64,000 nucleotides of DNA, from positions 224,563-288,562 of the forward strand of contig CBDBLR010000003.1 of assembly GCA_965207115.1 (NCBI GenBank). The letters are read 5' to 3'. The position numbers and the translations under genes were made by a program. Source of the stretch: Dehalococcoidia bacterium (GTDB lineage Bacteria; Chloroflexota; Dehalococcoidia; UBA6926). Numbering within the stretch: position 1 is the stretch's first letter; the number at the start of each line of letters is the position of its first letter. The notes beneath the pieces are model-generated. The model did not search any database and was not told the DNA's origin. It saw nothing but the letters and a program-made list of their open reading frames with translations. This document shows, piece by piece, positions 1 through 43,016 of this stretch.

Positions 1-238
1 AGCAAGTCAATAATGCTCGCGACCTACATCTCCGCCTGGAAGCCAGGTATCTTTCTACACGAGAGGATTACGCACTCTACCTTGAGGCTCACAGAAGCTG
101 GTCGTGCTGGGTTGAAAGCGCCGGGCAGAGCACTGGTGAAGGGCATGTTCCCTTCACATGCTAGCTGAGTAAACGGCCTTATAATTCCCCTGGGAATGCG
201 GCAGGATCTTCGCTGGGGATGCAGCACCCTCACCCTAA

Positions 239-262
239 CCCTCCCCCACAAAGGGGGGAGGG
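239..262. other. GC-rich stem-loop (CCCTCCCCC-acaaa-GGGGGGAGGG) just 3' of the CoA-transferase gene
   Basis: Inverted repeat read directly in the sequence, 14 nt beyond the stop codon at 276-278 (minus strand). There is no U-tract, so terminator function is unproven. Confidence 0.35.
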
Positions 263-275
263 GAATTTGGGAGTC

Positions 276-2687
276 CTAGACCAGAACTCCTCCCTCGGTG
301 AGTTCGCGGATGTCTGACTCGGAGAGACCGAGCAGCTCACGCATGACGAAGTTGTTGTGCTCGCCAAGGGCAGGGGCGCCCGTGCGGATTGCGCCGGGGG
401 TTTCTTCAAGCTTCGCGCCATAGGAGGCGTGGCCAATGTTGCCCCACTGCGGTTCCACATGCGGCACGTTGACGATGTAGCCGCGCGCGTTCAAGGCAGG
501 ATCGTAGTAGACCTCCTCCGTCGTCTGGGCGGCGGTGGCGGGCACGCCATGTTTCTGGAGCGTCAACATGACCTGCCGCGGAGTGAGGTTCCTCGTCCAC
601 TCGGATACGAGTTCATCGAGAGCTTCACGGTTGGCGAGACGTGCCTCCAACGTGGCGAAACGCGAGTCCTGCGTCCACTCCGGCGGATCCTGGTTGGGCG
701 GCGTCATACCGCGCACAAGCCCCTGCCATTCCTCCTCCGTGTGACAGGCGATGACACACCAGCGATCATCTCCAGCGCAGGGGTAGGCGTCGTGCGGGGC
801 GGCGTATTCGCGCCGGTTGCCCGTCGGTTCCTGGTTAACACCGTTGATGACGTAGTCCAGCAACGGCACGCCGAGCGCGTTTGCCTGCGCCTCTACCTGC
901 GAGACCTCAATGCGCTGGCCCTGTCCGGTCTTGAGCTTGTGATAAAGGGCGGTCTGCAGCATGTAGCCCGAGAGCCCGCCCACAAAGAAATCGGCATAGT
1001 AGACGCCGCAGCGAAGAGAGGGCGGCGATTCCGGATGTCCCCAGAGGTAGGTGACGCCGGAGGCTGTCTGCGCCTGGAGTCCAAACAAGACGTGGGACGC
1101 GAATGGGCCGGTGCTGCCCCACCCGGGCATGCTCATGTACACGATGTCCGGCTTGACGGCGCGGATGCCCTCATAGTCCAGACCCCAGCGTGAGAGCGCG
1201 CCTGCGGCGTAGTTCTCAACGACGGCATCGCTGGTCGCCGCAAGCTTGCGGACGATGTCTTGCCCCTCTTCAAAGTGGAGGTCCACGGTGATGCTCATCT
1301 TGTTGCGGTTGAGCTCCGGGTGCATGGGGAGGAGTCCGGCGATGCGGGACGCGGGGTCGAATAGCGACGATTCAATCTTGATGACCTCCGCGCCGAAGTC
1401 CGCAAGTTGCCGTGTTCCGTACGGGCCGACCCAGATGCGCGTCAGGTCTGTGATACGCACGCCCTCCATCGGCATGCGTCCATTGCCGGGGTTGGCCATG
1501 ACGGGGGCTGCCGGCGTCGATGGCGCGGCGTTGTCCGCCTCCGCAAGCACCTCGTCCGTGTGCTGTCCGAGCGTGGGTGCGGGGCGGCGCAACGACCATG
1601 GCGTCTCACTCAACCGTCCGGCAGGGCCGGGGAGCTTGTAGTTGCCCAGAACCGGATGCGTCACGTCCTGGAAATAGCCGCGGAAGAGCAGGTGAGGGTT
1701 TTCGGCGAGGTCGGCGGGAGAACTGACTGGCGCGGCGGGAATGCGGCGCGCCTGCGCCTCGTCCACGGCTTCCGCGACGGTCTTTGTGAGGAAGAACTCC
1801 ACCGCGATCTCGTTGATGAAGTCCTTGTTCTCCTGGCGGAGGGTGAGATCCCTGAACATCTCGTCCTGGATGACTTCATTGCCCGTCCACTGCGCGAACG
1901 ACATGAACTGGCCGGGCTGGATGGGAGAAAATCCGATCCAGCCGTCGGAGCATTCAAAGACGCCGGTCCCGCCGCCTCCGCCCGTGCCCGGGCGCGCCGC
2001 GACGGTGCTGCTGTAGCCGAACTGGGCGACGATGAACAGGATGTTCGCTGTTGCCTCCGTCATTGAGACGTCCACGCGCTGGCCGCGGCCTGAATGCTCC
2101 CGAGCGAAGAGCGCGTTCATGATTCCGATGGCCGCGTGCGTGCCGCCGACGGAATAGCCGAGGAAGGAGGGGGACATAACAGGTTGGTAATCGGGATCGC
2201 CCTGGAGAAGCATCAAACCGCCCATTGCCTCGGCGTGGATGTCCGTGCCCTTGTAGGAGGCGTAGGGGCCGGTCTGGCCGTAGGGTGTGACTGAACAGAG
2301 AATCAGGCCGGGGTTGTCAGCACGCAGACTTTCGAAATCAAGGCCAATCTCGTTGATGTAGCCGGGGGAGTTGGTTTCCAGGATGACGTCGACGGTTCGC
2401 GCGAGACGGCGGATTGTGTCCCGGCCCTCGTCCGTTGTGATGTCGGCGACGACACTGCGCTTGTTCGTGTGGAACGAGTGAAAGACGAGACTGCGCTCCT
2501 GGCCAGGTTCGTTGGCAGCGTAAGGCGGCATGTGGCGGCTCGCGTCGCCATTCGGTCCCTCAACGAGGATGACATCCGCGCCAAAGTCGGCGAGAAGCTT
2601 GGAGCCGTACATGGATGGCAGCCCACCAAGATCAAGCACACGCACGCCATCGAGCGCGCCGGCGGCATTATCGGTTTGAGATGTCAT
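276..2687 (-). CDS. Tandem two-domain family III (CaiB/BaiF-type) CoA-transferase, 803 aa
   Basis: N-terminal GVRVLDLGG...LLADFGADVILVE motif, and a second copy near residue 416 (GVRITDLTRIWVGPYGTRQLADFGAEVIKIE). GGGAGAAGG Shine-Dalgarno sequence upstream of the ATG at 2687. Confidence 0.85.
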   Translation of the reverse strand: MTSQTDNAAGALDGVRVLDLGGLPSMYGSKLLADFGADVILVEGPNGDASRHMPPYAANEPGQERSLVFHSFHTNKRSVVADITTDEGRDTIRRLARTVDVILETNSPGYINEIGLDFESLRADNPGLILCSVTPYGQTGPYASYKGTDIHAEAMGGLMLLQGDPDYQPVMSPSFLGYSVGGTHAAIGIMNALFAREHSGRGQRVDVSMTEATANILFIVAQFGYSSTVAARPGTGGGGGTGVFECSDGWIGFSPIQPGQFMSFAQWTGNEVIQDEMFRDLTLRQENKDFINEIAVEFFLTKTVAEAVDEAQARRIPAAPVSSPADLAENPHLLFRGYFQDVTHPVLGNYKLPGPAGRLSETPWSLRRPAPTLGQHTDEVLAEADNAAPSTPAAPVMANPGNGRMPMEGVRITDLTRIWVGPYGTRQLADFGAEVIKIESSLFDPASRIAGLLPMHPELNRNKMSITVDLHFEEGQDIVRKLAATSDAVVENYAAGALSRWGLDYEGIRAVKPDIVYMSMPGWGSTGPFASHVLFGLQAQTASGVTYLWGHPESPPSLRCGVYYADFFVGGLSGYMLQTALYHKLKTGQGQRIEVSQVEAQANALGVPLLDYVINGVNQEPTGNRREYAAPHDAYPCAGDDRWCVIACHTEEEWQGLVRGMTPPNQDPPEWTQDSRFATLEARLANREALDELVSEWTRNLTPRQVMLTLQKHGVPATAAQTTEEVYYDPALNARGYIVNVPHVEPQWGNIGHASYGAKLEETPGAIRTGAPALGEHNNFVMRELLGLSESDIRELTEGGVLV

Positions 2688-2716
2688 GTAACCTTCTCCC
2701 TGTTGTGTCCCTTGAA

Positions 2717-4042
2717 TCAGTCGAAAGCAAGTTGTGGGAACTGGTCGAAATTGTAGGATGAACCCTCATGGACAAGCGCGTCCCACCAGTCGATTCCGAA
2801 CCCGACCTTTTCCTCGAAATTTTCGCAAAGTATCTTTAAGTGCGGGTCACGATCAAACCGCTCATGTTTGTAGACGACCAAGCCGAGTCGCCGAGTAAGG
2901 AGTTCATGCATTTCGTTGAATAGCCTCACATTGGACTGCTTGGGTCGCAACCATACGACCATTTGCCCAGGTAGGCCGGTTCGGACATTACGAGGCATGC
3001 TCGTATGGTCAGTTAGCAGGGCGCTTGCGACGGAGAATCCCCGGGTGAACGCCGCTACGACCGATTCAGCAGAGGCCATTAACCCCTTGGGTAGCCGAAA
3101 ACCGTCGCAGTTCGTTTGTGGGGCAAAGGCTTGTGTAATGACTTCAAATGCTTTTGAGTCATCGGAGAGGTCAATAGTGACGGCCTGTTCGGACACTTCA
3201 ACCGTTGAATCGGGTAGCGCCCGCCGTGCCTGAATCGCTATCTCATCCGGGATAGTGCGTAACGCAGTTGCCGCTTCAAATGATTGATTCCTTACCGTGA
3301 TGCGACCTTCGTTGTAGCTGGCAGCCCGGAAGAGAAGACGAATTCTGATTGATGATTCCGTCAGATTCAGTTCTCCTCTAGCCGCAATTGCGCCCATCAG
3401 ATACGCCGCCTCAAGTGAGGGCCACGCAAATGGCTTCCTTGCAGCCGACTGCAAGTGCTCGGTCAGAGTTCGTAGTGCTCCACGTGACCGTCTTTCACCA
3501 CGCAACCAAGATGTCCTCAGGCGACCACAGTAGAGCTCATAGAGACGCGCGGCTTCGTGGTCGATATAGGATGCTTGTGGGTTGTTCCACAGGGACTCAA
3601 ATGCTTCATGTAGCATCCTGTTCTCCTGTGAATCAGACGGGCAATCAAGGACGATGCCATACTCCACGTTGCGGTTGAGAGCGGCGCCGGTCAGGTTCCC
3701 AGAACCGACTATCGAACTAGCTCCGGTGTCCATCTCTGTGAGATAGAGCTTGGCGTGGAAATTCCCACCATCGTCTTTCGGAAGCAGAGTCTTGAGTGTC
3801 ATCGTCTCATGGGCTTCCTGCAATGCGACCAGCGACCACACTGCGGACGGATCGGTGTTGCCGCTCTGAAGGTCAATGAGGAAGCGGATCTGGCGACCGT
3901 CGCGCAGTAAAGTCTCGATTTGCGGCATGACTATATCAAGCCCCTCTTTGGAGACGTAGGCAACGGCAATACTCACGTCGCTGTCTGACGACAATAGTGC
4001 TGGAATGTCTGCCCCATAGTCAGCGGAGCGAATCATCGTCAT
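2717..4042 (-). CDS. PLD/HKD-superfamily nuclease-like protein with an unrelated C-terminal domain; candidate restriction endonuclease, 441 aa
   Basis: Single HKD motif HAKLYLTEMDTGASSIVGSGNLT (H96, K98). The start ATG overlaps the methyltransferase stop (ATGA at 4039-4042). Local GC is lower than the flanks. Confidence 0.7.
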   Translation of the reverse strand: MTMIRSADYGADIPALLSSDSDVSIAVAYVSKEGLDIVMPQIETLLRDGRQIRFLIDLQSGNTDPSAVWSLVALQEAHETMTLKTLLPKDDGGNFHAKLYLTEMDTGASSIVGSGNLTGAALNRNVEYGIVLDCPSDSQENRMLHEAFESLWNNPQASYIDHEAARLYELYCGRLRTSWLRGERRSRGALRTLTEHLQSAARKPFAWPSLEAAYLMGAIAARGELNLTESSIRIRLLFRAASYNEGRITVRNQSFEAATALRTIPDEIAIQARRALPDSTVEVSEQAVTIDLSDDSKAFEVITQAFAPQTNCDGFRLPKGLMASAESVVAAFTRGFSVASALLTDHTSMPRNVRTGLPGQMVVWLRPKQSNVRLFNEMHELLTRRLGLVVYKHERFDRDPHLKILCENFEEKVGFGIDWWDALVHEGSSYNFDQFPQLAFD

Positions 4043-4899
4043 TTTGGCTTCTGGAAGATGTTTATGTACTCGTGAACCTTGTTGATGCGAAAGACGGACG
4101 GGTGACCCAAGGGGCGAAGATTGTTGTACTCGCTGCTGCGATCCCAGATGATGATGTCATCGAGGACAAACCCAACCTTTTCCATGTATTGGGCTAGGTC
4201 TGCATGGAACGGATAGAATCGATCCTTTTTGCGCAAGTCCATGACAATTACGCAACAATAGGCTCCAGGCTTTATGGCGAGATAAACCTTGCTGAAAACT
4301 TCTGTCAACTCTTCAAGGAAGGCGTGGTAGTCTTCAATCGTGCCTAGATCTCCTTCAGCATTCCCATAATGGCGAACGTCTTTGTAGTCCGCAGTGCGAT
4401 CTCTTTGGAGTATGTCCCAGTAAGGCGGGGACGTTATCACAAGGTCTACTGTTTCCGGCTCCACGAATTCCAGGAGGTTTCGCGCGTCCGCGACATGCAG
4501 TTGTCTCTCGCCAAGCTCCGCCGCGGTATTTAGAAGCGGTTGAGGCCGCGTGTGCGCTTTCGTAATGTAATCAACCGACAGGTCAAGCCCGATGCCGATC
4601 TTGCCCGCCGCCTCTGCGGCAATGACCGTCGAACCGACACCGACAAATGGGTCAAGGACTATCCGTTGGTCATTCGTCGTGAGACTCTCAATGAGCCGTG
4701 TTACCAGTTGACCCGGGAACATGGCGGGGTGCTTTAGGTTTTGTTCCTCGCTCGTCTTGCGGATGTCATTCCACACGCTGATGGAGTTGCGCAGCCACGC
4801 TGCGCCGTCAAGATCGTTCGCCCTCTTGCGTGGGGACCTCGGCTTGGATGGAGGTTTTTCCTCTCCGGGCAACAATCGTTGCTGTGCTTCTGTGGCCAA
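4039..4899 (-). CDS. N6-adenine/N4-cytosine DNA methyltransferase (PF01555-like), 286 aa, TTG start
   Basis: KHPAMFPGQL...VLDPFVGVGSTVIAAE (motifs X and I) followed by VDLVITSPPYWD (motif IV). Translationally coupled to the downstream PLD gene. Confidence 0.85.
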   Translation of the reverse strand: MATEAQQRLLPGEEKPPSKPRSPRKRANDLDGAAWLRNSISVWNDIRKTSEEQNLKHPAMFPGQLVTRLIESLTTNDQRIVLDPFVGVGSTVIAAEAAGKIGIGLDLSVDYITKAHTRPQPLLNTAAELGERQLHVADARNLLEFVEPETVDLVITSPPYWDILQRDRTADYKDVRHYGNAEGDLGTIEDYHAFLEELTEVFSKVYLAIKPGAYCCVIVMDLRKKDRFYPFHADLAQYMEKVGFVLDDIIIWDRSSEYNNLRPLGHPSVFRINKVHEYINIFQKPK

Positions 4900-4972
4900 A
4901 ACTCGTGTCCCCCAGCGCGTATCGTTCTCAGAATGAGCCTACATGAGTGGTCGCATGGGGGCAATGCGTGCT

Positions 4973-7351
4973 CTAGGTTAACGCTCCTACGTCCTGTAGT
5001 TTCTGCACTTCGTCGTCTGAGAGGCCGAGGATTCCGCGGAGGACGTAGTCATTGTGCTGGCCGAGGGCGGCGGAGGGCATCCGCGAGCCGCCGGGCGTTT
5101 CTGACAGGCGGACGGTGACGCCCGGCTGCTGCAAGACACCCCAATCCGGGTGATCCAGCGTTTGGATGTAGCCGCGCTCACGCAGGTGCGGGTCCCAGTA
5201 CAGCCCCTCGCCGTCGAGGACGGCGGTGGCAGCGACGCCTGAGCGTTGGAGCAGGTGCATGACTTGGCGTGGCGTCTGCGTTCGCGTCCACTCGGACAGT
5301 TCGGCGTTCAGCGCGTCCTCGTTGGCTTTACGTCCCTCTTGCGTCGCATAGTCTGGAGTCTGCGTCCATGCAGGAGCGCCAATGGCCTGAACGAGCGCTT
5401 CCCATTCCTGGTCCGTCCTGCAGGCGATGGCGCACCATTCATCGCTGCCCTTGGCGGGATAGATGCCGTGCGGGGCGTGGACGGGGTGGCGGTTGCCAAC
5501 GGGCTCGCCGGGACGGCCGTTGACCTTGTAGTCCATGAAGGGCATGGCCATGGTGTTGCCGACGGCCTCCACCTGCGCCATCTCTACGTACTGGCCGCGT
5601 CCCGTCTCTGCCTTGTGATAGATGGCGGCAAGAGCGGCGAGCGCGGTAAGGCTGGCGATGAGAAAGTCAGGGTAGTCGAACTTGCAGCGGGCGTTCGGTT
5701 CCGACTCCGGGTGTCCCCATGTGTAGCTGAGGCCGGAGACGGAGACGAGGCTGAATCCGAAGGCGACGTGATCCTTAAGCGGCCCGATGCTGCCCCACCC
5801 GGGCATGCTGACCTGGATGATCTCCGGGTTGACCTTACGCAGTTCCTCGTAGCCGAGATCGAAGCGGTCGATGACGCCGAGCGCGAAGTTGTCTATGACG
5901 AGGTCAGAGACGGCGGCGATGCGCATGGCGACTTCCCGCGCCTCATCGTGATGCAGGTCAAGCGTGATGCCGTGCTTGTTGCGGTTGAGATCGGCAACGA
6001 ATGGCATCGTGCCCATGCGGTTGTTGGTGTCGAACAGGGACGACTCAACCTTGATAACTTCCGCGCCGTAGTCGGCAAGCTGACGCGTGCAGTACGGCCC
6101 CGCCCAGATTCGCGTGAAGTCCAGGACTCGCACGCCCTCAAGCGGTAGCACGGGGGTCGCGCCGTTCTCCGCCGCTCCGGCGGGCGCAGGTTGGCGTTCC
6201 GAGACTTGACCGGCGTGTTCGTTCAACAGAGGGGCGGGTTTGGGCTGGGGGATGGGTGTTTCCGACATACGGAAGGGCGGGCCGGGGAGAGGATATTCAC
6301 CGATATCGGGGTGTTTGACTGTCGTGAAATAGTCACGCTCAGCGAACTGGACATTGTCGGCAAAGTCGCCGGGGCGATTGACGGGCGCGGCTGCGAGGCG
6401 TCGACTCTGTGCCTCTTCCACGAACTCGGCCACCGTAAACTGCTCGATGAACGGCCTGGTGAGGGAATCGATGAACAGCATGTTCTCGCCCTGCCGGTTG
6501 ATAAGCGGATACCAGAACTCGTCCTGCAGGGCGGGCTCGCCCATCCAGTCGAAGAAGACCCTTGCCTGCGGGGCGAGGAGCACGGCAAGGCTCACCCATC
6601 CGTCCTTACACCGGTAGATGTTGTAGGGGGCGAGGTTGCCGGTTGCGCCGATGCGCTCTCCGATCTCCGACGTGGCCGAGTAGCGGATGATCTGGTAGAA
6701 GATGTTGGCCAGCACCTCCTGCATGGAGACTTCCACGTGCTGGCCTCGGCCAGTCTTGCGGCGCGCCATGAGCGCGTAGAAGACTCCGTGCGCGGCGTGG
6801 ATGTTGGCCATGATATATGCCTGGTCGAGGGGAGCGGCTGCGGGGGGCTGCTCGTCGTCGCCCTGGATAGTTGTCAGCCCGCTCATGGCAATGGCATGGA
6901 GGTCTGAAGCCAGGTAATCGCCATAGGGGCCGGACTCGCCGAACGGCGTGACGGAGACGGTGATCAGGCGAGGATTGTCCTCTCTCAAGACGCCATCAGG
7001 CAGCCCGATGGTGGCGAGGTAGCCGGGCTCGAAACTGTCCAGCACGACATCGGCGGACCGCGCCATGTCCAGCAACTGTTGGCGGCCATTGTCCGTTGCA
7101 ATGTCGATGACGACGCTCGACTTATTGGAGTTGTAGGCGAGCCAGCGGAGGCTGCGGTTTAGGCCCGGTTCATCACCGGCGAACGGAGGCAGGAACCGGA
7201 CGGGATCGCCGCCCGGGGGCTCGATTTTGATGACCTCCGCGCCCATGTCTGCCAGCAGGCGACCGGCGTACTGCCCGGCCAACCCGGACAGGTCAAGCAC
7301 GCGGATTCCTGCCAAGACGGACGGAGACGTTCCATTGGCTGTCGTTGTCAT
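4973..7351 (-). CDS. Tandem two-domain family III (CaiB/BaiF-type) CoA-transferase, 792 aa; paralog of 276..2687
   Basis: GIRVLDLSGLAGQYAGRLLADMGAEVIKIE and a second GVRVLDFTRIWAGPYCTRQLADYGAEVIKVE. Shares the SMPGWGS.GP and NRNK motifs with the paralog. Confidence 0.85.
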   Translation of the reverse strand: MTTTANGTSPSVLAGIRVLDLSGLAGQYAGRLLADMGAEVIKIEPPGGDPVRFLPPFAGDEPGLNRSLRWLAYNSNKSSVVIDIATDNGRQQLLDMARSADVVLDSFEPGYLATIGLPDGVLREDNPRLITVSVTPFGESGPYGDYLASDLHAIAMSGLTTIQGDDEQPPAAAPLDQAYIMANIHAAHGVFYALMARRKTGRGQHVEVSMQEVLANIFYQIIRYSATSEIGERIGATGNLAPYNIYRCKDGWVSLAVLLAPQARVFFDWMGEPALQDEFWYPLINRQGENMLFIDSLTRPFIEQFTVAEFVEEAQSRRLAAAPVNRPGDFADNVQFAERDYFTTVKHPDIGEYPLPGPPFRMSETPIPQPKPAPLLNEHAGQVSERQPAPAGAAENGATPVLPLEGVRVLDFTRIWAGPYCTRQLADYGAEVIKVESSLFDTNNRMGTMPFVADLNRNKHGITLDLHHDEAREVAMRIAAVSDLVIDNFALGVIDRFDLGYEELRKVNPEIIQVSMPGWGSIGPLKDHVAFGFSLVSVSGLSYTWGHPESEPNARCKFDYPDFLIASLTALAALAAIYHKAETGRGQYVEMAQVEAVGNTMAMPFMDYKVNGRPGEPVGNRHPVHAPHGIYPAKGSDEWCAIACRTDQEWEALVQAIGAPAWTQTPDYATQEGRKANEDALNAELSEWTRTQTPRQVMHLLQRSGVAATAVLDGEGLYWDPHLRERGYIQTLDHPDWGVLQQPGVTVRLSETPGGSRMPSAALGQHNDYVLRGILGLSDDEVQKLQDVGALT

Positions 7352-7454
7352 AGTCTCCCCTGTGTCGCCTTCATCCGATCAGTGGTAAATGGATAGCGGC
7401 GCGGCGGCGATGTCGCGCCGGATATTCGCAAGCGTAGCAGGATGGGACGCGCCG

Positions 7455-8990
7455 TCAAGCATATTCGGTGATCGGCTGCGCGAGGATCCAGAGACTGACC
7501 ATCGTGTAGCCGACCATCAGGATGAGCATGGCGCGTTGGCTTCTCAAGGCGACATCATGCGCTCCGAAATGCCGCAGCGCCGTGACGTGCGCGAGGAAGA
7601 CGGCGATGACGTGGCCGATGATGATGGCGACGATCGCCAGTATCCAGACAAACTGCGCGTTGATGATGCCGATGTTGACCTGGTAGTCGGACGTGCCGAA
7701 CAGGTCCCAGCCGAATCCGAACGGGTCGGAAGCGTGGGGGATTACCACCTGCCCCTGGATGAGCAAGTAGGAGAAGAAGTGAGCGAGATGGTAGGCGAAA
7801 GCGATGGGCACAAGAGAGAGGGCAAAGACACGGGCGGCCGCCATCGTGTTCCGTGTCTCCGGCGTCTCGCCCGAGCGGGCCATGACAGCACAAAAGAGGA
7901 GATAGGCGGCCACGAATATCCCTGCGAAGGCCATAAGGCCGGCGGTGTTCACCAGCGTGACGGCGGTGGACGTCCATCCGGGCGAGTTGACGAATGCCCG
8001 GTGGACGAGTTGTGCCCAGGGCGGTGTGTCCTGCAGGCCGTCAAACGTGACGGTGGACAGGAGGACGACGACAAGAATCATGTAGGAGGTAGTCGTGCCC
8101 GCACCGCTCAGCAGTCCTGCGCCCGGGGGTCTCAGGCCAACCTCTCGTCGTTCAGGCGGGGCGGCGCGAAAGGCCTCGACATCATCGATGGATTCTGTCT
8201 CGCCACTCTCGGAGACGACGCGCAGTTCGGTTGGGGCGAATCGAGAGAGGATGCCAAAGATTAGGGAGAACACGTCTGCGTTGCGCATCCAGGCGTCCGC
8301 TCCGAATATGGCCATGCCCCACCACGTGATCATGCAGTAGCCGATGATGGCAATGGCGAGCGACAGGGGCTCCGCAGAACCCTCGTAGGCAATCTCAAAC
8401 CATGCGAAAAGGGCAAAGACGATGACGGCGGGCCACGCGCCCCATGCCGGCGGGTAGGAAGAATCGTCCTGTCCGAAACTGAGGCCGCCCGGGACGACGC
8501 GCCGCGCGAGCGCGTCTATCCATTCGTAAATCGTACGGACGGGGTTTACTAAACCCCAGACGTTTCCGATGAGCGCGGATACAAACGCGATCCCGACCCA
8601 CCAGTAGACCCATACGAGGACGGGGGCGATGTTGGCTGTCGAACGGTTGACGCCCAACGCGCCGGTGAGCAGGACGAGCAAGAGGAGCAGGACACTGAGG
8701 ACGCGAATTACCTGAATGACAGGGGTACTCGCCAACATTCGGACAGGCCACAGCTTGAGCAGGTTGAAGCGGGGGTAGTCGGTTGCGCTGGGTGTTCGGC
8801 GCACAAAGACGGCAACGATGACGAATGAGAGGGCGACAGCCAACCCCGCGCCCGTCACATAGAGCGTGAGGGGCAGGGGCAGGTCATATTTCTCGCCGAA
8901 GCCGTGAGCGAATGCGACCCCGGGGATGAGCCATGCGAGAACCGCTAACGCAGTCGCAAGCGGGAGAATAGTTACAGCGAGCCTTTTCAT
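7455..8990 (-). CDS. Polytopic integral membrane protein of unknown function, 511 aa
   Basis: N-terminal signal-like segment ending AFA followed by HGFGEKYDLPLPL, then more than 10 hydrophobic segments. Lies 15 nt downstream of the cupredoxin-like gene on the same strand. Confidence 0.7.
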   Translation of the reverse strand: MKRLAVTILPLATALAVLAWLIPGVAFAHGFGEKYDLPLPLTLYVTGAGLAVALSFVIVAVFVRRTPSATDYPRFNLLKLWPVRMLASTPVIQVIRVLSVLLLLLVLLTGALGVNRSTANIAPVLVWVYWWVGIAFVSALIGNVWGLVNPVRTIYEWIDALARRVVPGGLSFGQDDSSYPPAWGAWPAVIVFALFAWFEIAYEGSAEPLSLAIAIIGYCMITWWGMAIFGADAWMRNADVFSLIFGILSRFAPTELRVVSESGETESIDDVEAFRAAPPERREVGLRPPGAGLLSGAGTTTSYMILVVVLLSTVTFDGLQDTPPWAQLVHRAFVNSPGWTSTAVTLVNTAGLMAFAGIFVAAYLLFCAVMARSGETPETRNTMAAARVFALSLVPIAFAYHLAHFFSYLLIQGQVVIPHASDPFGFGWDLFGTSDYQVNIGIINAQFVWILAIVAIIIGHVIAVFLAHVTALRHFGAHDVALRSQRAMLILMVGYTMVSLWILAQPITEYA

Positions 8991-9005
8991 TGCGGCTCGC
9001 TTATT

Positions 9006-9509
9006 TTACGGCCTGACTTCGAGAGTGGCGATGAGGCGCTCTCTGACACTCGTCCCGGCCGCCGTATCGGTCGTCACATGATCGGTGTGCTCCATGGATG
9101 AGGAATCAGACGGAGAATCCATGCTGCCCATGTCATCCATTCCCGAGTCTGCCGTGAGAACGCCTTCGGCGGCGTGAATAAAGATGTCATACCGCCCTGT
9201 CGCATGTGCCTCGAAACTCATCGGCGCTGTCACCCCGGGCCCCACCTCCGCCTCGATGTTATAGCCATGCAAATGGACCAGGAGCGGCAAGTCGCTCGTC
9301 CAATCGATCGTGACTGTATCCCCCTGATTGACCGTCAAAGTTGATTCGTCGGCGGTCAATTCGCCTCCGACGATTTCCATTTCAAAGGCAACGTCCTGAG
9401 GCTCACGATCCTCACACGCGGCGGCAAGGAGGGCGGCCAACACTATCGCCATGGCAATCGTTGCCGTCCTCAACAGGTTCGTGACGTTCAAATGGTCACC
9501 TTGTTCCAC
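9006..9509 (-). CDS. Putative lipoprotein with a cupredoxin-like fold and a Met/His/Asp-rich tail, 167 aa
   Basis: Hydrophobic N-terminus with LAAAC. LTVNQGDTVTIDWTSD...VHLHGYN...FEAHATGRYDIFIH resembles cupredoxin-like domains. C-terminal MDDMGSMDSPSDSSSMEHTDH is a metal-binding-type low-complexity region. The exact start is uncertain. Confidence 0.5.
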   Translation of the reverse strand: MEQGDHLNVTNLLRTATIAMAIVLAALLAAACEDREPQDVAFEMEIVGGELTADESTLTVNQGDTVTIDWTSDLPLLVHLHGYNIEAEVGPGVTAPMSFEAHATGRYDIFIHAAEGVLTADSGMDDMGSMDSPSDSSSMEHTDHVTTDTAAGTSVRERLIATLEVRP

Positions 9510-18977: not shown

Positions 18978-19051
18978 TGGCTGGGGAACGTGGATTCGAA
19001 CCACGACTAACAGATTCAGAGTCTGTCGTCCTACCGTTAGACGATTCCCCA
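18978..19051 (-). tRNA. tRNA-Gln (anticodon CTG), CCA encoded
   Basis: Manual cloverleaf: acceptor TGGGGAA/TTCCCCA, anticodon stem ACAGA/TCTGT with loop CTCTGAA, T-arm CGTGG-TTCGAAT-CCACG, 74 nt. Confidence 0.95.
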
Positions 19052-39284: not shown

Positions 39285-39359
39285 TGGAGCGGGCGATGGG
39301 GATCGAACCCACGACATTCTGCTTGGGAAGCAGACACTCTACCACTGAGTTACGCCCGC
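39285..39359 (-). tRNA. tRNA-Gly (anticodon CCC), CCA encoded
   Basis: GCGGGCGTAACTCAGTGGTAGAGT..., anticodon stem TCTGC/GCAGA with loop TTCCCAA, T-loop TTCGATC, 75 nt. Confidence 0.95.
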
Positions 39360-42895: not shown

Positions 42896-43016
42896 GCCCC
42901 GGCAACGACCTATTTTCCACAGAGGGCTGCCCCTCCAGTATCGTCGGCGCTGAAACGTTTCACTTCCGTGTTCGGGATGGGAACGGGTGGGTCCGCTTCG
43001 CCAGAGTCACCGGGAC
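42896..43016 (-). rRNA. rrf: 5S ribosomal RNA, stand-alone
   Basis: The minus strand reads ...CCCACCCGTTCCCATCCCGAACACGGAAGTGAAACGTTTCAGCGCCGACGATACTGG...TAGGTCGTTGCCGGGGC, matching the bacterial 5S consensus core. Helix I pairs GUCCCGGUGAC with GUCGUUGCCGGGGC. A U-run follows. Confidence 0.9.

Follow-up and report, generated by a model that had tools for sequence, protein, structure and literature searches.

A mobile methyltransferase–nuclease pair in Dehalococcoidia joins a BfiI-like catalytic domain to a predicted degenerate LAGLIDADG fold

Introduction

The folds named for type II restriction enzymes are PD-(D/E)XK, HNH, GIY-YIG, phospholipase D (PLD), and half-pipe (PMC2441816, PMC1952068). 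Among the PLD enzymes, the BfiI/NgoAVII family is defined by a B3-like second domain, and the active site of BfiI consists of H105, K107, N125, and E136 (PMC4267654). In this study, we analyzed a stretch of 64,000 nucleotides from a Dehalococcoidia bacterium (assembly GCA_965207115.1, contig CBDBLR010000003.1, positions 224,563 to 288,562; hereafter, the window), which carries a DNA methyltransferase gene overlapping the gene of a PLD-family nuclease. The catalytic half of this nuclease resembles that of BfiI, whereas its C-terminal half is predicted to adopt a degenerate double-LAGLIDADG fold. We give a probability of roughly 0.68 to the reading that the two genes form a mobile restriction–modification (R-M) cassette, in which a BfiI-like PLD nuclease reads DNA via a dead LAGLIDADG fold.

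The closest described PLD enzymes are the type IIS enzymes BfiI and BmrI, together with NgoAVII and CglI, which are ATP-dependent and combine a PLD R-protein with a DEAD-helicase N- or H-protein. The asymmetric site of BfiI is served by two methyltransferases. In engineered fusions, inactive I-SceI has been joined with PvuII or FokI, so that an inactivated LAGLIDADG protein acts as the reader. Engineered chimeras such as BmrI198-C.BclI likewise tether a non-specific or PLD cleavage module to a separate sequence reader (PMC2094064). A review of homing endonucleases describes WhiA as a host protein with the LAGLIDADG fold; in the WhiA of T. maritima, Arg and Gly occupy the positions of the catalytic acids, and the protein is not a nuclease (PMC3384342). 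In the literature searched, which did not cover REBASE, we found neither a natural restriction enzyme uniting PLD/HKD and LAGLIDADG nor a LAGLIDADG fold in any R-M system.

Judged from this literature and from the predicted models, the pair would represent an R-M system of the PLD family in which recognition relies on a new fold. If this is true, a new DNA-recognition fold is added to the restriction enzymes, and nature has built the same type of chimera as engineers have, by tethering a cleavage module to an inactive meganuclease. It would also provide a compact, metal-independent nuclease with a specificity domain from the best-studied reprogrammable DNA-binding scaffold. If it is wrong, the locus still holds an ordinary uncharacterized R-M pair. 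The interest centers on the domestication of a LAGLIDADG domain and on its association with a single methyltransferase family.

The catalytic half of the nuclease

The nuclease matched the Pfam PLDc_2 model (PF13091) with an E value of 4e-9. As had been stated in an earlier note made from the letters of this DNA, it contained one HKD motif (H96-x-K98 ... G113-S-x-N116). When the protein was aligned with BfiI (2c1l) using phmmer, H96, K98, N116, and E127 corresponded to the BfiI residues H105, K107, N125, and E136, and these four residues were invariant among 20 aligned members of the family, with identities down to 41%. The AlphaFold2 (AF2) model of the full-length protein had a predicted local distance difference test (pLDDT) score of 88.5, with the lowest confidence at residues 182–185 in the linker.

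In Foldseek searches, the PLD domain matched the nuclease domain of SauUSI first (1.7e-10), followed by PLD3, NucT, Nuc, Zucchini, NgoAVII, and BfiI, and phosphatidylserine synthase structures appeared lower among the matches (~4e-6). These lower matches are the point in favor of an enzyme of phospholipid metabolism (cardiolipin or phosphatidylserine synthase type) that lies beside a methyltransferase by coincidence. Such an explanation is scarcely credible, because the protein has one HKD motif instead of two, its nearest fold matches are nucleases, and it is fused to a fold of nucleic-acid enzymes and obligately linked to a DNA methyltransferase. Grouping with phospholipid or cardiolipin synthases had been named in the earlier note as a result that would speak against a restriction nuclease; by fold, the protein groups with nucleases.

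Only the PLD domain was recognized by the other collections searched. In NCBIfam and PADLOC, there were sub-threshold matches to this domain alone (DrmC, ZacB, PbeA, and REase_II) and no whole-protein model, and the plasmid and phage collections yielded PLD-domain matches alone, with no full-length relative of the nuclease. The clusters of homologs in the databases are named 'HKD family nuclease' and nothing else. An assignment to DrmC of the DISARM system was rejected: the NF038319 model scored 29.9 bits against a cutoff of 133, and no DISARM genes were found near the pair in the window or in three gene-called loci of relatives.

With BfiI and BmrI, the window nuclease shares the N-terminal single-HKD PLD domain, the four catalytic residues, the linker, and a C-terminal non-catalytic domain, as well as a stand-alone gene beside a methyltransferase gene and the lack of an ATPase partner. 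By analogy, a dimer with one shared, metal-independent active site would be expected. In contrast, the sequence similarity to BfiI was marginal (8e-4 over 43 residues), and the operon encodes a single small methyltransferase. NgoAVII and CglI, to which a weak match to PF09565 points, likewise have a PLD domain followed by a linker and a DNA-binding domain. However, the predicted DNA-binding domain has a different fold, and no helicase or ATPase gene belongs to the operon; neither in the window nor in any of the three gene-called loci did a gene for a DEAD-family helicase/ATPase (N or H protein) adjoin the pair.

The LAGLIDADG-like half of the nuclease

The AF2 model of residues 195–441 had a pLDDT of 91.6 and a predicted template modeling (pTM) score of 0.90, and all of its 50 top Foldseek matches in the PDB were monomeric LAGLIDADG homing endonucleases or WhiA. 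The matches included the TliVMA intein endonuclease domain (5e-7), I-Tsp061I (template modeling score of 0.63), PI-SceI, I-SceI, I-DmoI, and I-OnuI, and the WhiA structures 3hyj, 3hyi, and 8dy9 were among the best. No B3-like structure occurred among these 50 best matches. Because the B3-like second domain that defines the BfiI/NgoAVII family is replaced in the models by a LAGLIDADG-like fold of ~240 residues, the window nuclease is, on this structural prediction, not a member of that family. The likeness to BfiI proposed in the earlier note therefore holds for the catalytic half, where the tetrad is intact, but not for the DNA-binding half, which is predicted to be a degenerate double-LAGLIDADG domain rather than a B3-like barrel.

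The protein could nevertheless be an ordinary member of the BfiI/BmrI or NgoAVII/CglI groups, with a B3-like domain that has diverged too far to be recognized. Its domain order (PLD, linker, and C-terminal domain) is similar, and the PLD domain gave weak matches to PF09565 RE_NgoFVII (6e-4, below the cutoff) and to BfiI 2c1l (8e-4). These sequence matches are confined to the PLD domain, however, and in the fold comparison with the full-length model, BfiI and NgoAVII aligned over only ~175–180 columns. As the C-terminal model matches LAGLIDADG proteins and WhiA alone, with neither B3 nor the BfiI C-terminal domain among the 50 best, and as no gene for a DEAD-helicase N-protein is adjacent in the window or the three gene-called loci, we regard this explanation as most improbable.

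In the alignment of family members, two G-rich helices (YLMGAIAARG and FTRGFSVASA) resemble degenerate LAGLIDADG motifs. The predicted scaffold appears to have lost its catalytic residues. An invariant R222 ends the first motif helix, where homing endonucleases carry a metal-binding Asp or Glu, and Ser or Cys at position 340 (S340 in the window) ends the second motif helix in place of an acid; these assignments follow the ends of the predicted helices rather than a structural superposition. Because these residues sit where Asp or Glu would be expected, the model suggests a dead LAGLIDADG scaffold in which both catalytic acids have been replaced. WhiA/DUF199 offers the closest parallel, as both have a monomeric double-LAGLIDADG scaffold with replaced acids and Arg at the first position. 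Unlike WhiA, which is a transcription factor, the window protein has no C-terminal helix–turn–helix (HTH) domain and combines its scaffold with a nuclease in one chain, in linkage with a methyltransferase; the sole Pfam signal, to LAGLIDADG_WhiA, had an E value of 0.17 and was obtained for one of 14 members. The homing endonucleases (I-DmoI, I-SceI, I-Tsp061I, and the PI-SceI domain) have the predicted fold in common with the window domain, but the latter lacks both metal-binding acids and has a long conserved loop in place of the first hairpin of the second half. Moreover, it is fused to a PLD domain in a methyltransferase–nuclease operon between metabolic genes and is neither located in an intron or intein nor encoded by a free-standing homing gene.

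The predicted LAGLIDADG-like domain probably serves as the sequence reader, because its acids are replaced as in WhiA and the protein contains no other candidate DNA-binding domain. In contrast to the engineered chimeras, the window protein occurs naturally, with conservation over at least 24 sequence clusters, and has its own methyltransferase encoded beside it.

The methyltransferase and the gene overlap

The methyltransferase scored 106 bits against PF01555 (cutoff, 26.7), and GGGGGA is located ~8 nt upstream of its TTG start. The PF01555 match falls in two swapped pieces. The alignment with the best solved relative, TTHA0409 (2zie; 2e-27), is swapped in the same manner, with query residues 128–256 corresponding to chain residues 18–140 and query residues 11–115 to chain residues 176–273. 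Because both the Pfam model and TTHA0409 match in this way, the enzyme is, as read from its sequence, a circular permutant of the beta-class PF01555 family. Its motif I precedes motif IV, so the linear beta-class order of motif IV, target-recognition domain (TRD), and motif I is not followed. M.PvuII, TTHA0409, N4CMT, and CcrM are beta-class amino-methyltransferases of the same PF01555 family, from which the window enzyme differs in being permuted, with the break where the TRD would lie; in beta-class enzymes, the TRD is located in that region. The PADLOC type II methyltransferase model PDLC03363 matched the window enzyme collinearly, which implies that the permuted motif order is already represented among type II enzymes.

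The catalytic motif SPPY is shared with N4CMT, an N4-cytosine enzyme; in CcrM, which acts on adenine, the motif is DPPY (PMC10406627). On the basis of this motif, the product is probably N4-methylcytosine; TTHA0409 has no assigned specificity.

The overlap of the two genes by ATGA, reported in the earlier note, was confirmed in the minus-strand sequence, where the junction reads AAAATGACG and the ATG at 4042–4040 overlaps the TGA at 4041–4039. As the arrangement recurs in all nine related genomes described below, the overlap is evidently not due to chance. The overlap is 4 bp long in six of these genomes. In each of the remaining three, the match to the methyltransferase stops shortly before the start of the nuclease, with an 11-bp overlap between the called genes in one case.

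Linkage and joint decay in related genomes

In the protein collection, we identified 71 full-length homologs of the nuclease (413–453 amino acids) and two shorter entries. Nine loci were found in reference genomes, all of them metagenome-assembled genomes of Dehalococcoidia or Tepidiformaceae, and the methyltransferase gene was directly upstream of the nuclease gene, overlapping or abutting it, in every case. Identities to the window proteins dropped in step across the nine loci, from 89 to 62% for the methyltransferase and from 82 to 41% for the nuclease. The two genes are adjacent and co-inherited, as expected of a type II R-M system. No third gene was conserved among these loci, and the neighborhoods differed between genomes. 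Antisense open reading frames (ORFs) of 70 amino acids just downstream of the pair in L011 and L012 were considered as a third gene but rejected, as they are unrelated to each other.

The two genes also decay together. At L008 (5110–8503), an IS630-like element (ORFs 6927–7457 and 7454–8104) interrupts the nuclease gene, and a frameshift within the SPPY motif disrupts the methyltransferase gene, so that both have become pseudogenes. Linkage to the same methyltransferase family extends to a more distant PLD fusion (L023; 23% identical to the window nuclease), which is overlapped by a gene of this family.

This linkage bears on another explanation, in which the PLD protein is modification-dependent (type IV-like) or functionally unrelated to an orphan or regulatory methyltransferase. 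SauUSI, the best match of the PLD domain in both fold and sequence, is a type IV enzyme, and methyltransferases of this family far outnumber the related nucleases and are often found on their own. Nevertheless, the similarity to SauUSI is limited to the PLD domain, and neither a helicase nor an SRA-type reader is present. Furthermore, an overlapping operon with the methyltransferase first and the nuclease second, as in nine of nine genomes, would be self-destructive with a nuclease that cuts the product of its partner, and the two genes decayed together in L008. We consider this explanation highly improbable and retain the R-M reading.

Orphan relatives of the methyltransferase were also observed. 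The genome that carries the pair at L006/L010 has a second methyltransferase, 61% identical to that of the window (L015:3556–5891), in a phage-like run of small unannotated genes, beside a C5 DNA methylase gene and near a UDG gene, and L017 has a similar orphan copy. Such orphan methyltransferases (~61% identical) in phage-like regions could represent prophage counter-defense, which for the Dehalococcoidia suggests an arms race with prophage-borne orphan methyltransferases.

Presence and absence of the cassette

In the closest relative found, a metagenome contig (L013), the flanking DNA is 93–95% identical to that of the window, and the protein identities of the two CoA-transferases reach 96% and 98%. 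This contig lacks the whole cassette and has only 47 bp between the two CoA-transferase genes: in blastn, window positions 1–2687 and 4970–9112 aligned at 93–94% identity, and nothing between them did. The cassette was found at the same site in the more distant L002 (flanks 86–87% identical) and L001 (flanks 73–75%), and it is ~80% identical in nucleotides to both, so its divergence does not track that of the flanks.

The composition of the pair also differs from its surroundings, with a GC content of 53.6% versus 63.6% in the flanks and a GC content at third codon positions of 0.58–0.62 versus 0.79 in the flanking genes. The pair is the lowest-GC 2.2-kb stretch of the window (mean, 60.5%; standard deviation, 2.0%), and its GC content is 5–14 points below that of the local flanks in all nine genomes. 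The value of about 42% given in the earlier note was not reproduced, as even the lowest 500-bp window had 49.8%. The cassette is a presence/absence polymorphism of foreign composition, and for the Dehalococcoidia, which are mostly uncultured, it documents an active gain-and-loss site for defense genes. Because the cassette occupies this site in more distant relatives as well, loss in the L013 lineage is as likely as gain in the window lineage. Recombination exchange through the conserved flanks would explain the discordant distances. Of the horizontally acquired R-M module proposed in the earlier note, the compact, mobile, type II-like character with a PLD-family nuclease stands, but its description as inserted does not, as loss is equally likely. 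No target-site duplication and no terminal or inverted repeat was seen at the cassette junctions.

The same data could be read as those of a selfish addiction or homing-like element with a long, rare target, spreading or maintained at loci such as the gap between the CoA-transferase genes. The polymorphism at one site and the divergence of the flanks unlike that of the cassette would fit this, as would the long sites that LAGLIDADG scaffolds typically read and the occurrence of CoA_transf_3 genes beside the pair in five of nine genomes. A homing element, however, abolishes its target site when it inserts and has no need of a methyltransferase, the pair lies amid unrelated genes in other genomes, and the junctions show neither a target-site duplication nor terminal repeats. 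Furthermore, selfishness is a known trait of ordinary R-M systems and not an alternative to them. A purely homing-like or addictive element is thus improbable.

The LAGLIDADG-like domain in other proteins

When the profile of the C-terminal domain was searched against 1.84 billion representative proteins, 78 proteins were found. A PLD domain was present in 24 of the 78, half of which (12) also matched the NgoFVII PLD model, and three had a GreA/GreB C-terminal domain. One protein of 1735 amino acids (P0093) combined McrB-N and EVE (modified-base reader) domains with the LAGLIDADG-like domain, and ~30 were stand-alone proteins of ~300 amino acids with no Pfam match. A thin bridge at the sequence level was provided by P0094, which matched the Pfam family LAGLIDADG_3 weakly (3e-4). 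The distribution suggests that the domain is used more widely in defense-type proteins. We also observed the domain at the end of large proteins with no assigned function, namely P0093, P0081 and P0085 (412 and 423 amino acids), and P0090, P0094, P0095, P0098, P0101, and P0107 (905–1242 amino acids).

Some domain proteins that lack the PLD domain are encoded directly downstream of the same permuted methyltransferase family (L016, L018/L019, L020, L021, and L022). The methyltransferases of these sister operons were 64% (L016), 54% (L020), 45% (L018/L019), and 46% (L021) identical to that of the window; in L022, only the last 21 methyltransferase residues are left before the contig end. In an hhalign comparison, the L016 protein matched the domain profile with a probability of 97.3% (E value, 1.7e-11). 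Two sister operons (L020:126–2399 and L021:244–4187) consist of the methyltransferase, a LAGLIDADG-like protein of ~300 amino acids with a conserved tail after the domain (HPxEN..LPxELRGKHFxxYxxICxALGC), and a small protein of 156–160 amino acids. With 41% identity to each other, the two small proteins have the motif D-x13-D-L-V-F-V-E-C-K in common; the one from L020 had a sub-threshold match to UPF0102 (0.084). At the level of this motif, they look like PD-(D/E)xK nucleases. In L021, a gene resembling an HTH controller precedes a 611-residue fusion of a Dam-like methyltransferase and an N6_N4 methyltransferase, of which the family in question makes up one half.

Across the contexts sampled, the domain was paired with the same methyltransferase family in 13 of 14, whereas the nuclease part varied. 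In view of the sister operons without PLD, we consider the nuclease to be the exchangeable part and the domain to be the one retained with the methyltransferase. This is the expected pattern if methyltransferase and LAGLIDADG-like domain recognize one and the same sequence. Tentatively, and with the odds somewhat against it, the domain may be a general, unrecognized target-recognition module of restriction and defense systems, which co-evolves with the permuted SPPY methyltransferase family and works with interchangeable effectors. These effectors would be the PLD domain in cis, the small PD-(D/E)xK-like protein in trans (L020 and L021), or McrB-N plus EVE or GreA/B C-terminal domains. If this were true, it would be the first use of the LAGLIDADG fold of homing endonucleases in R-M.

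The co-occurrence of the domain with one methyltransferase family would also fit a physical complex of methyltransferase and nuclease, and the domain might serve protein contacts or autoinhibition, such as docking of the methyltransferase or gating of the PLD site, rather than DNA reading. Specificity would then come from elsewhere or be absent, making the nuclease a loosely specific degrader held in check by methylation alone. In line with this, the long invariant loop at 345–362 takes the place of a beta-hairpin of the canonical DNA-binding saddle, and the LAGLIDADG domain of WhiA is suspected to have ceded DNA binding to the HTH domain (PMC3384342). Against it, a restriction nuclease needs a target reader and the protein offers no other candidate, and in the sister operons, the domain is a separate protein encoded between the methyltransferase and a putative nuclease, as in the layout of a specificity subunit. 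A role without DNA reading is therefore unlikely, if less so than the other explanations considered here.

Proposed mechanism

The R-M reading put forward in the earlier note is supported by the pairing in nine of nine genomes, the intact BfiI tetrad, the nuclease fold matches, the empty site in L013, and the joint decay in L008. For the cassette as an R-M system with a LAGLIDADG-like reader, we propose the following mechanism. The methyltransferase would mark a short sequence of the host, most likely as N4-methylcytosine. The nuclease would be a natural chimera of a PLD catalytic domain and a monomeric double-LAGLIDADG scaffold, in which the latter plays the part that the B3-like domain plays in BfiI. 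Two PLD domains would dimerize to form one metal-independent active site, as in BfiI, and cut via a covalent phospho-histidine intermediate. The dead scaffold of each subunit would bind the unmethylated target and deliver nearby DNA to this site, such that methylated host DNA would be spared and incoming phage DNA would be the presumed substrate. The gene order of methyltransferase before nuclease and the ATGA overlap would tie synthesis of the nuclease to prior translation of the methyltransferase.

Several points weigh against this reading. The LAGLIDADG assignment rests on predicted structure: with residues 200–441, neither a profile search against the PDB nor Pfam scans of 14 members gave a significant sequence match. 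Double-LAGLIDADG scaffolds normally read asymmetric sites of 14–22 bp. The main difficulty is that so long a site is hard to reconcile with a single methyltransferase of 286 amino acids, which suggests a short and probably symmetric site. Nor does the fold alone prove DNA reading, since WhiA has a LAGLIDADG domain that may lack DNA binding altogether (PMC3384342). In a divergent protein with the same architecture (L024:4001–5320; 27% identity), the HxK and GSxN motifs are intact, but there is no methyltransferase gene within 4 kb; this protein may act as a solitary nuclease, or a methyltransferase encoded at another locus of the genome may provide protection. An analysis of k-mer avoidance in the window indicated no particular target; many palindromes, among them GATC, CTAG, GGCC, and GGCGCC, are depleted there, as in many genomes, and this is not attributable to the pair. 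Lastly, a consensus scan of positions 2500–5200 matched neither promoter nor terminator, and because none was detected, the pair may be transcribed by read-through from the CoA-transferase genes.

Features and surroundings of the cassette

The features of the cassette are listed in Table 1. The spacer upstream of the methyltransferase gene belongs to the cassette and contains a 5-bp hairpin (CGCAT/ATGCG), as well as a possible weak promoter read by eye (TTGCCC, 17 nt, TGTAGGCT).

Table 1. Positions of the cassette, its genes and domains, and the flanking genes in the window
Feature	Position	Strand	Remarks
Whole cassette	2688–4969	-	2282 bp; absent from the closest relative found (L013)
Nuclease gene (441 amino acids)	2717–4042	-	PLD domain, helical linker, predicted degenerate double-LAGLIDADG domain
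PLD (single HKD) nuclease domain, residues 1–155	3578–4042	-	PF13091 over residues 16–152
Catalytic residues H96, K98, N116, E127	3662–3757	-	phmmer alignment to 2c1l
Two-helix interdomain linker, residues 156–199	3446–3577	-	AF2 model
Predicted degenerate double-LAGLIDADG fold, residues 200–441	2720–3445	-	AF2 model and Foldseek; no Pfam model
First LAGLIDADG-like helix, YLMGAIAARG, residues 214–223	3374–3403	-	
Second LAGLIDADG-like helix, FTRGFSVASA, residues 332–341	3020–3049	-	
DNA amino-methyltransferase (286 amino acids)	4039–4899	-	PF01555 N6_N4_Mtase, 3e-30; TTG start
Motif I (S-adenosylmethionine binding), FVGVGS, residues 85–90	4630–4647	-	
Motif IV (catalytic), SPPY, residues 157–160	4420–4431	-	
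ATGA overlap, methyltransferase stop and nuclease start	4039–4042	-	
Upstream spacer, cassette-borne	4900–4969	-	Conserved in alignment of the window, L001, and L002
CoA-transferase gene, one flank	276–2687	- (same as the pair)	Two CoA_transf_3 domains
CoA-transferase gene, other flank	4973–7351	- (same as the pair)	Two CoA_transf_3 domains

As the earlier note had also recognized, the pair lies between two paralogous CoA-transferase genes on the same strand. Both encode double-domain fusions, with two CoA_transf_3 domains in ~800 amino acids, and they are 46% identical to each other. The five related genomes in which family III CoA-transferase genes adjoin the pair include L003, L006, and L008, and in distant genomes, the identity of these CoA-transferases falls to 28–32%. 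Such neighbors may mark a preferred site or may occur by chance where these genes are abundant in the genome.

Other defense-related or unusual genes were observed near some of the relatives. In a Tepidiformaceae genome, a gene for an MmeI/Eco57I-like type IIG R-M protein of 1029 amino acids (L012:13476–16565) lies ~4 kb from the pair, which hints at a small defense cluster in that genome. A SocA_Panacea gene lies ~5 kb from the pair in L011, and upstream of the PLD fusion in L024, there is a gene for a 167-residue protein made up of DLAELKAEIK-type repeats. Elsewhere in the window, tRNA-Gln (18978–19051) and tRNA-Gly (39285–39359) are the sole two tRNA genes. A gene for 5S rRNA lies at positions 42897–43014; because neither 16S nor 23S rRNA was matched in the 64-kb window, it seems to be unlinked from the other rRNA genes.

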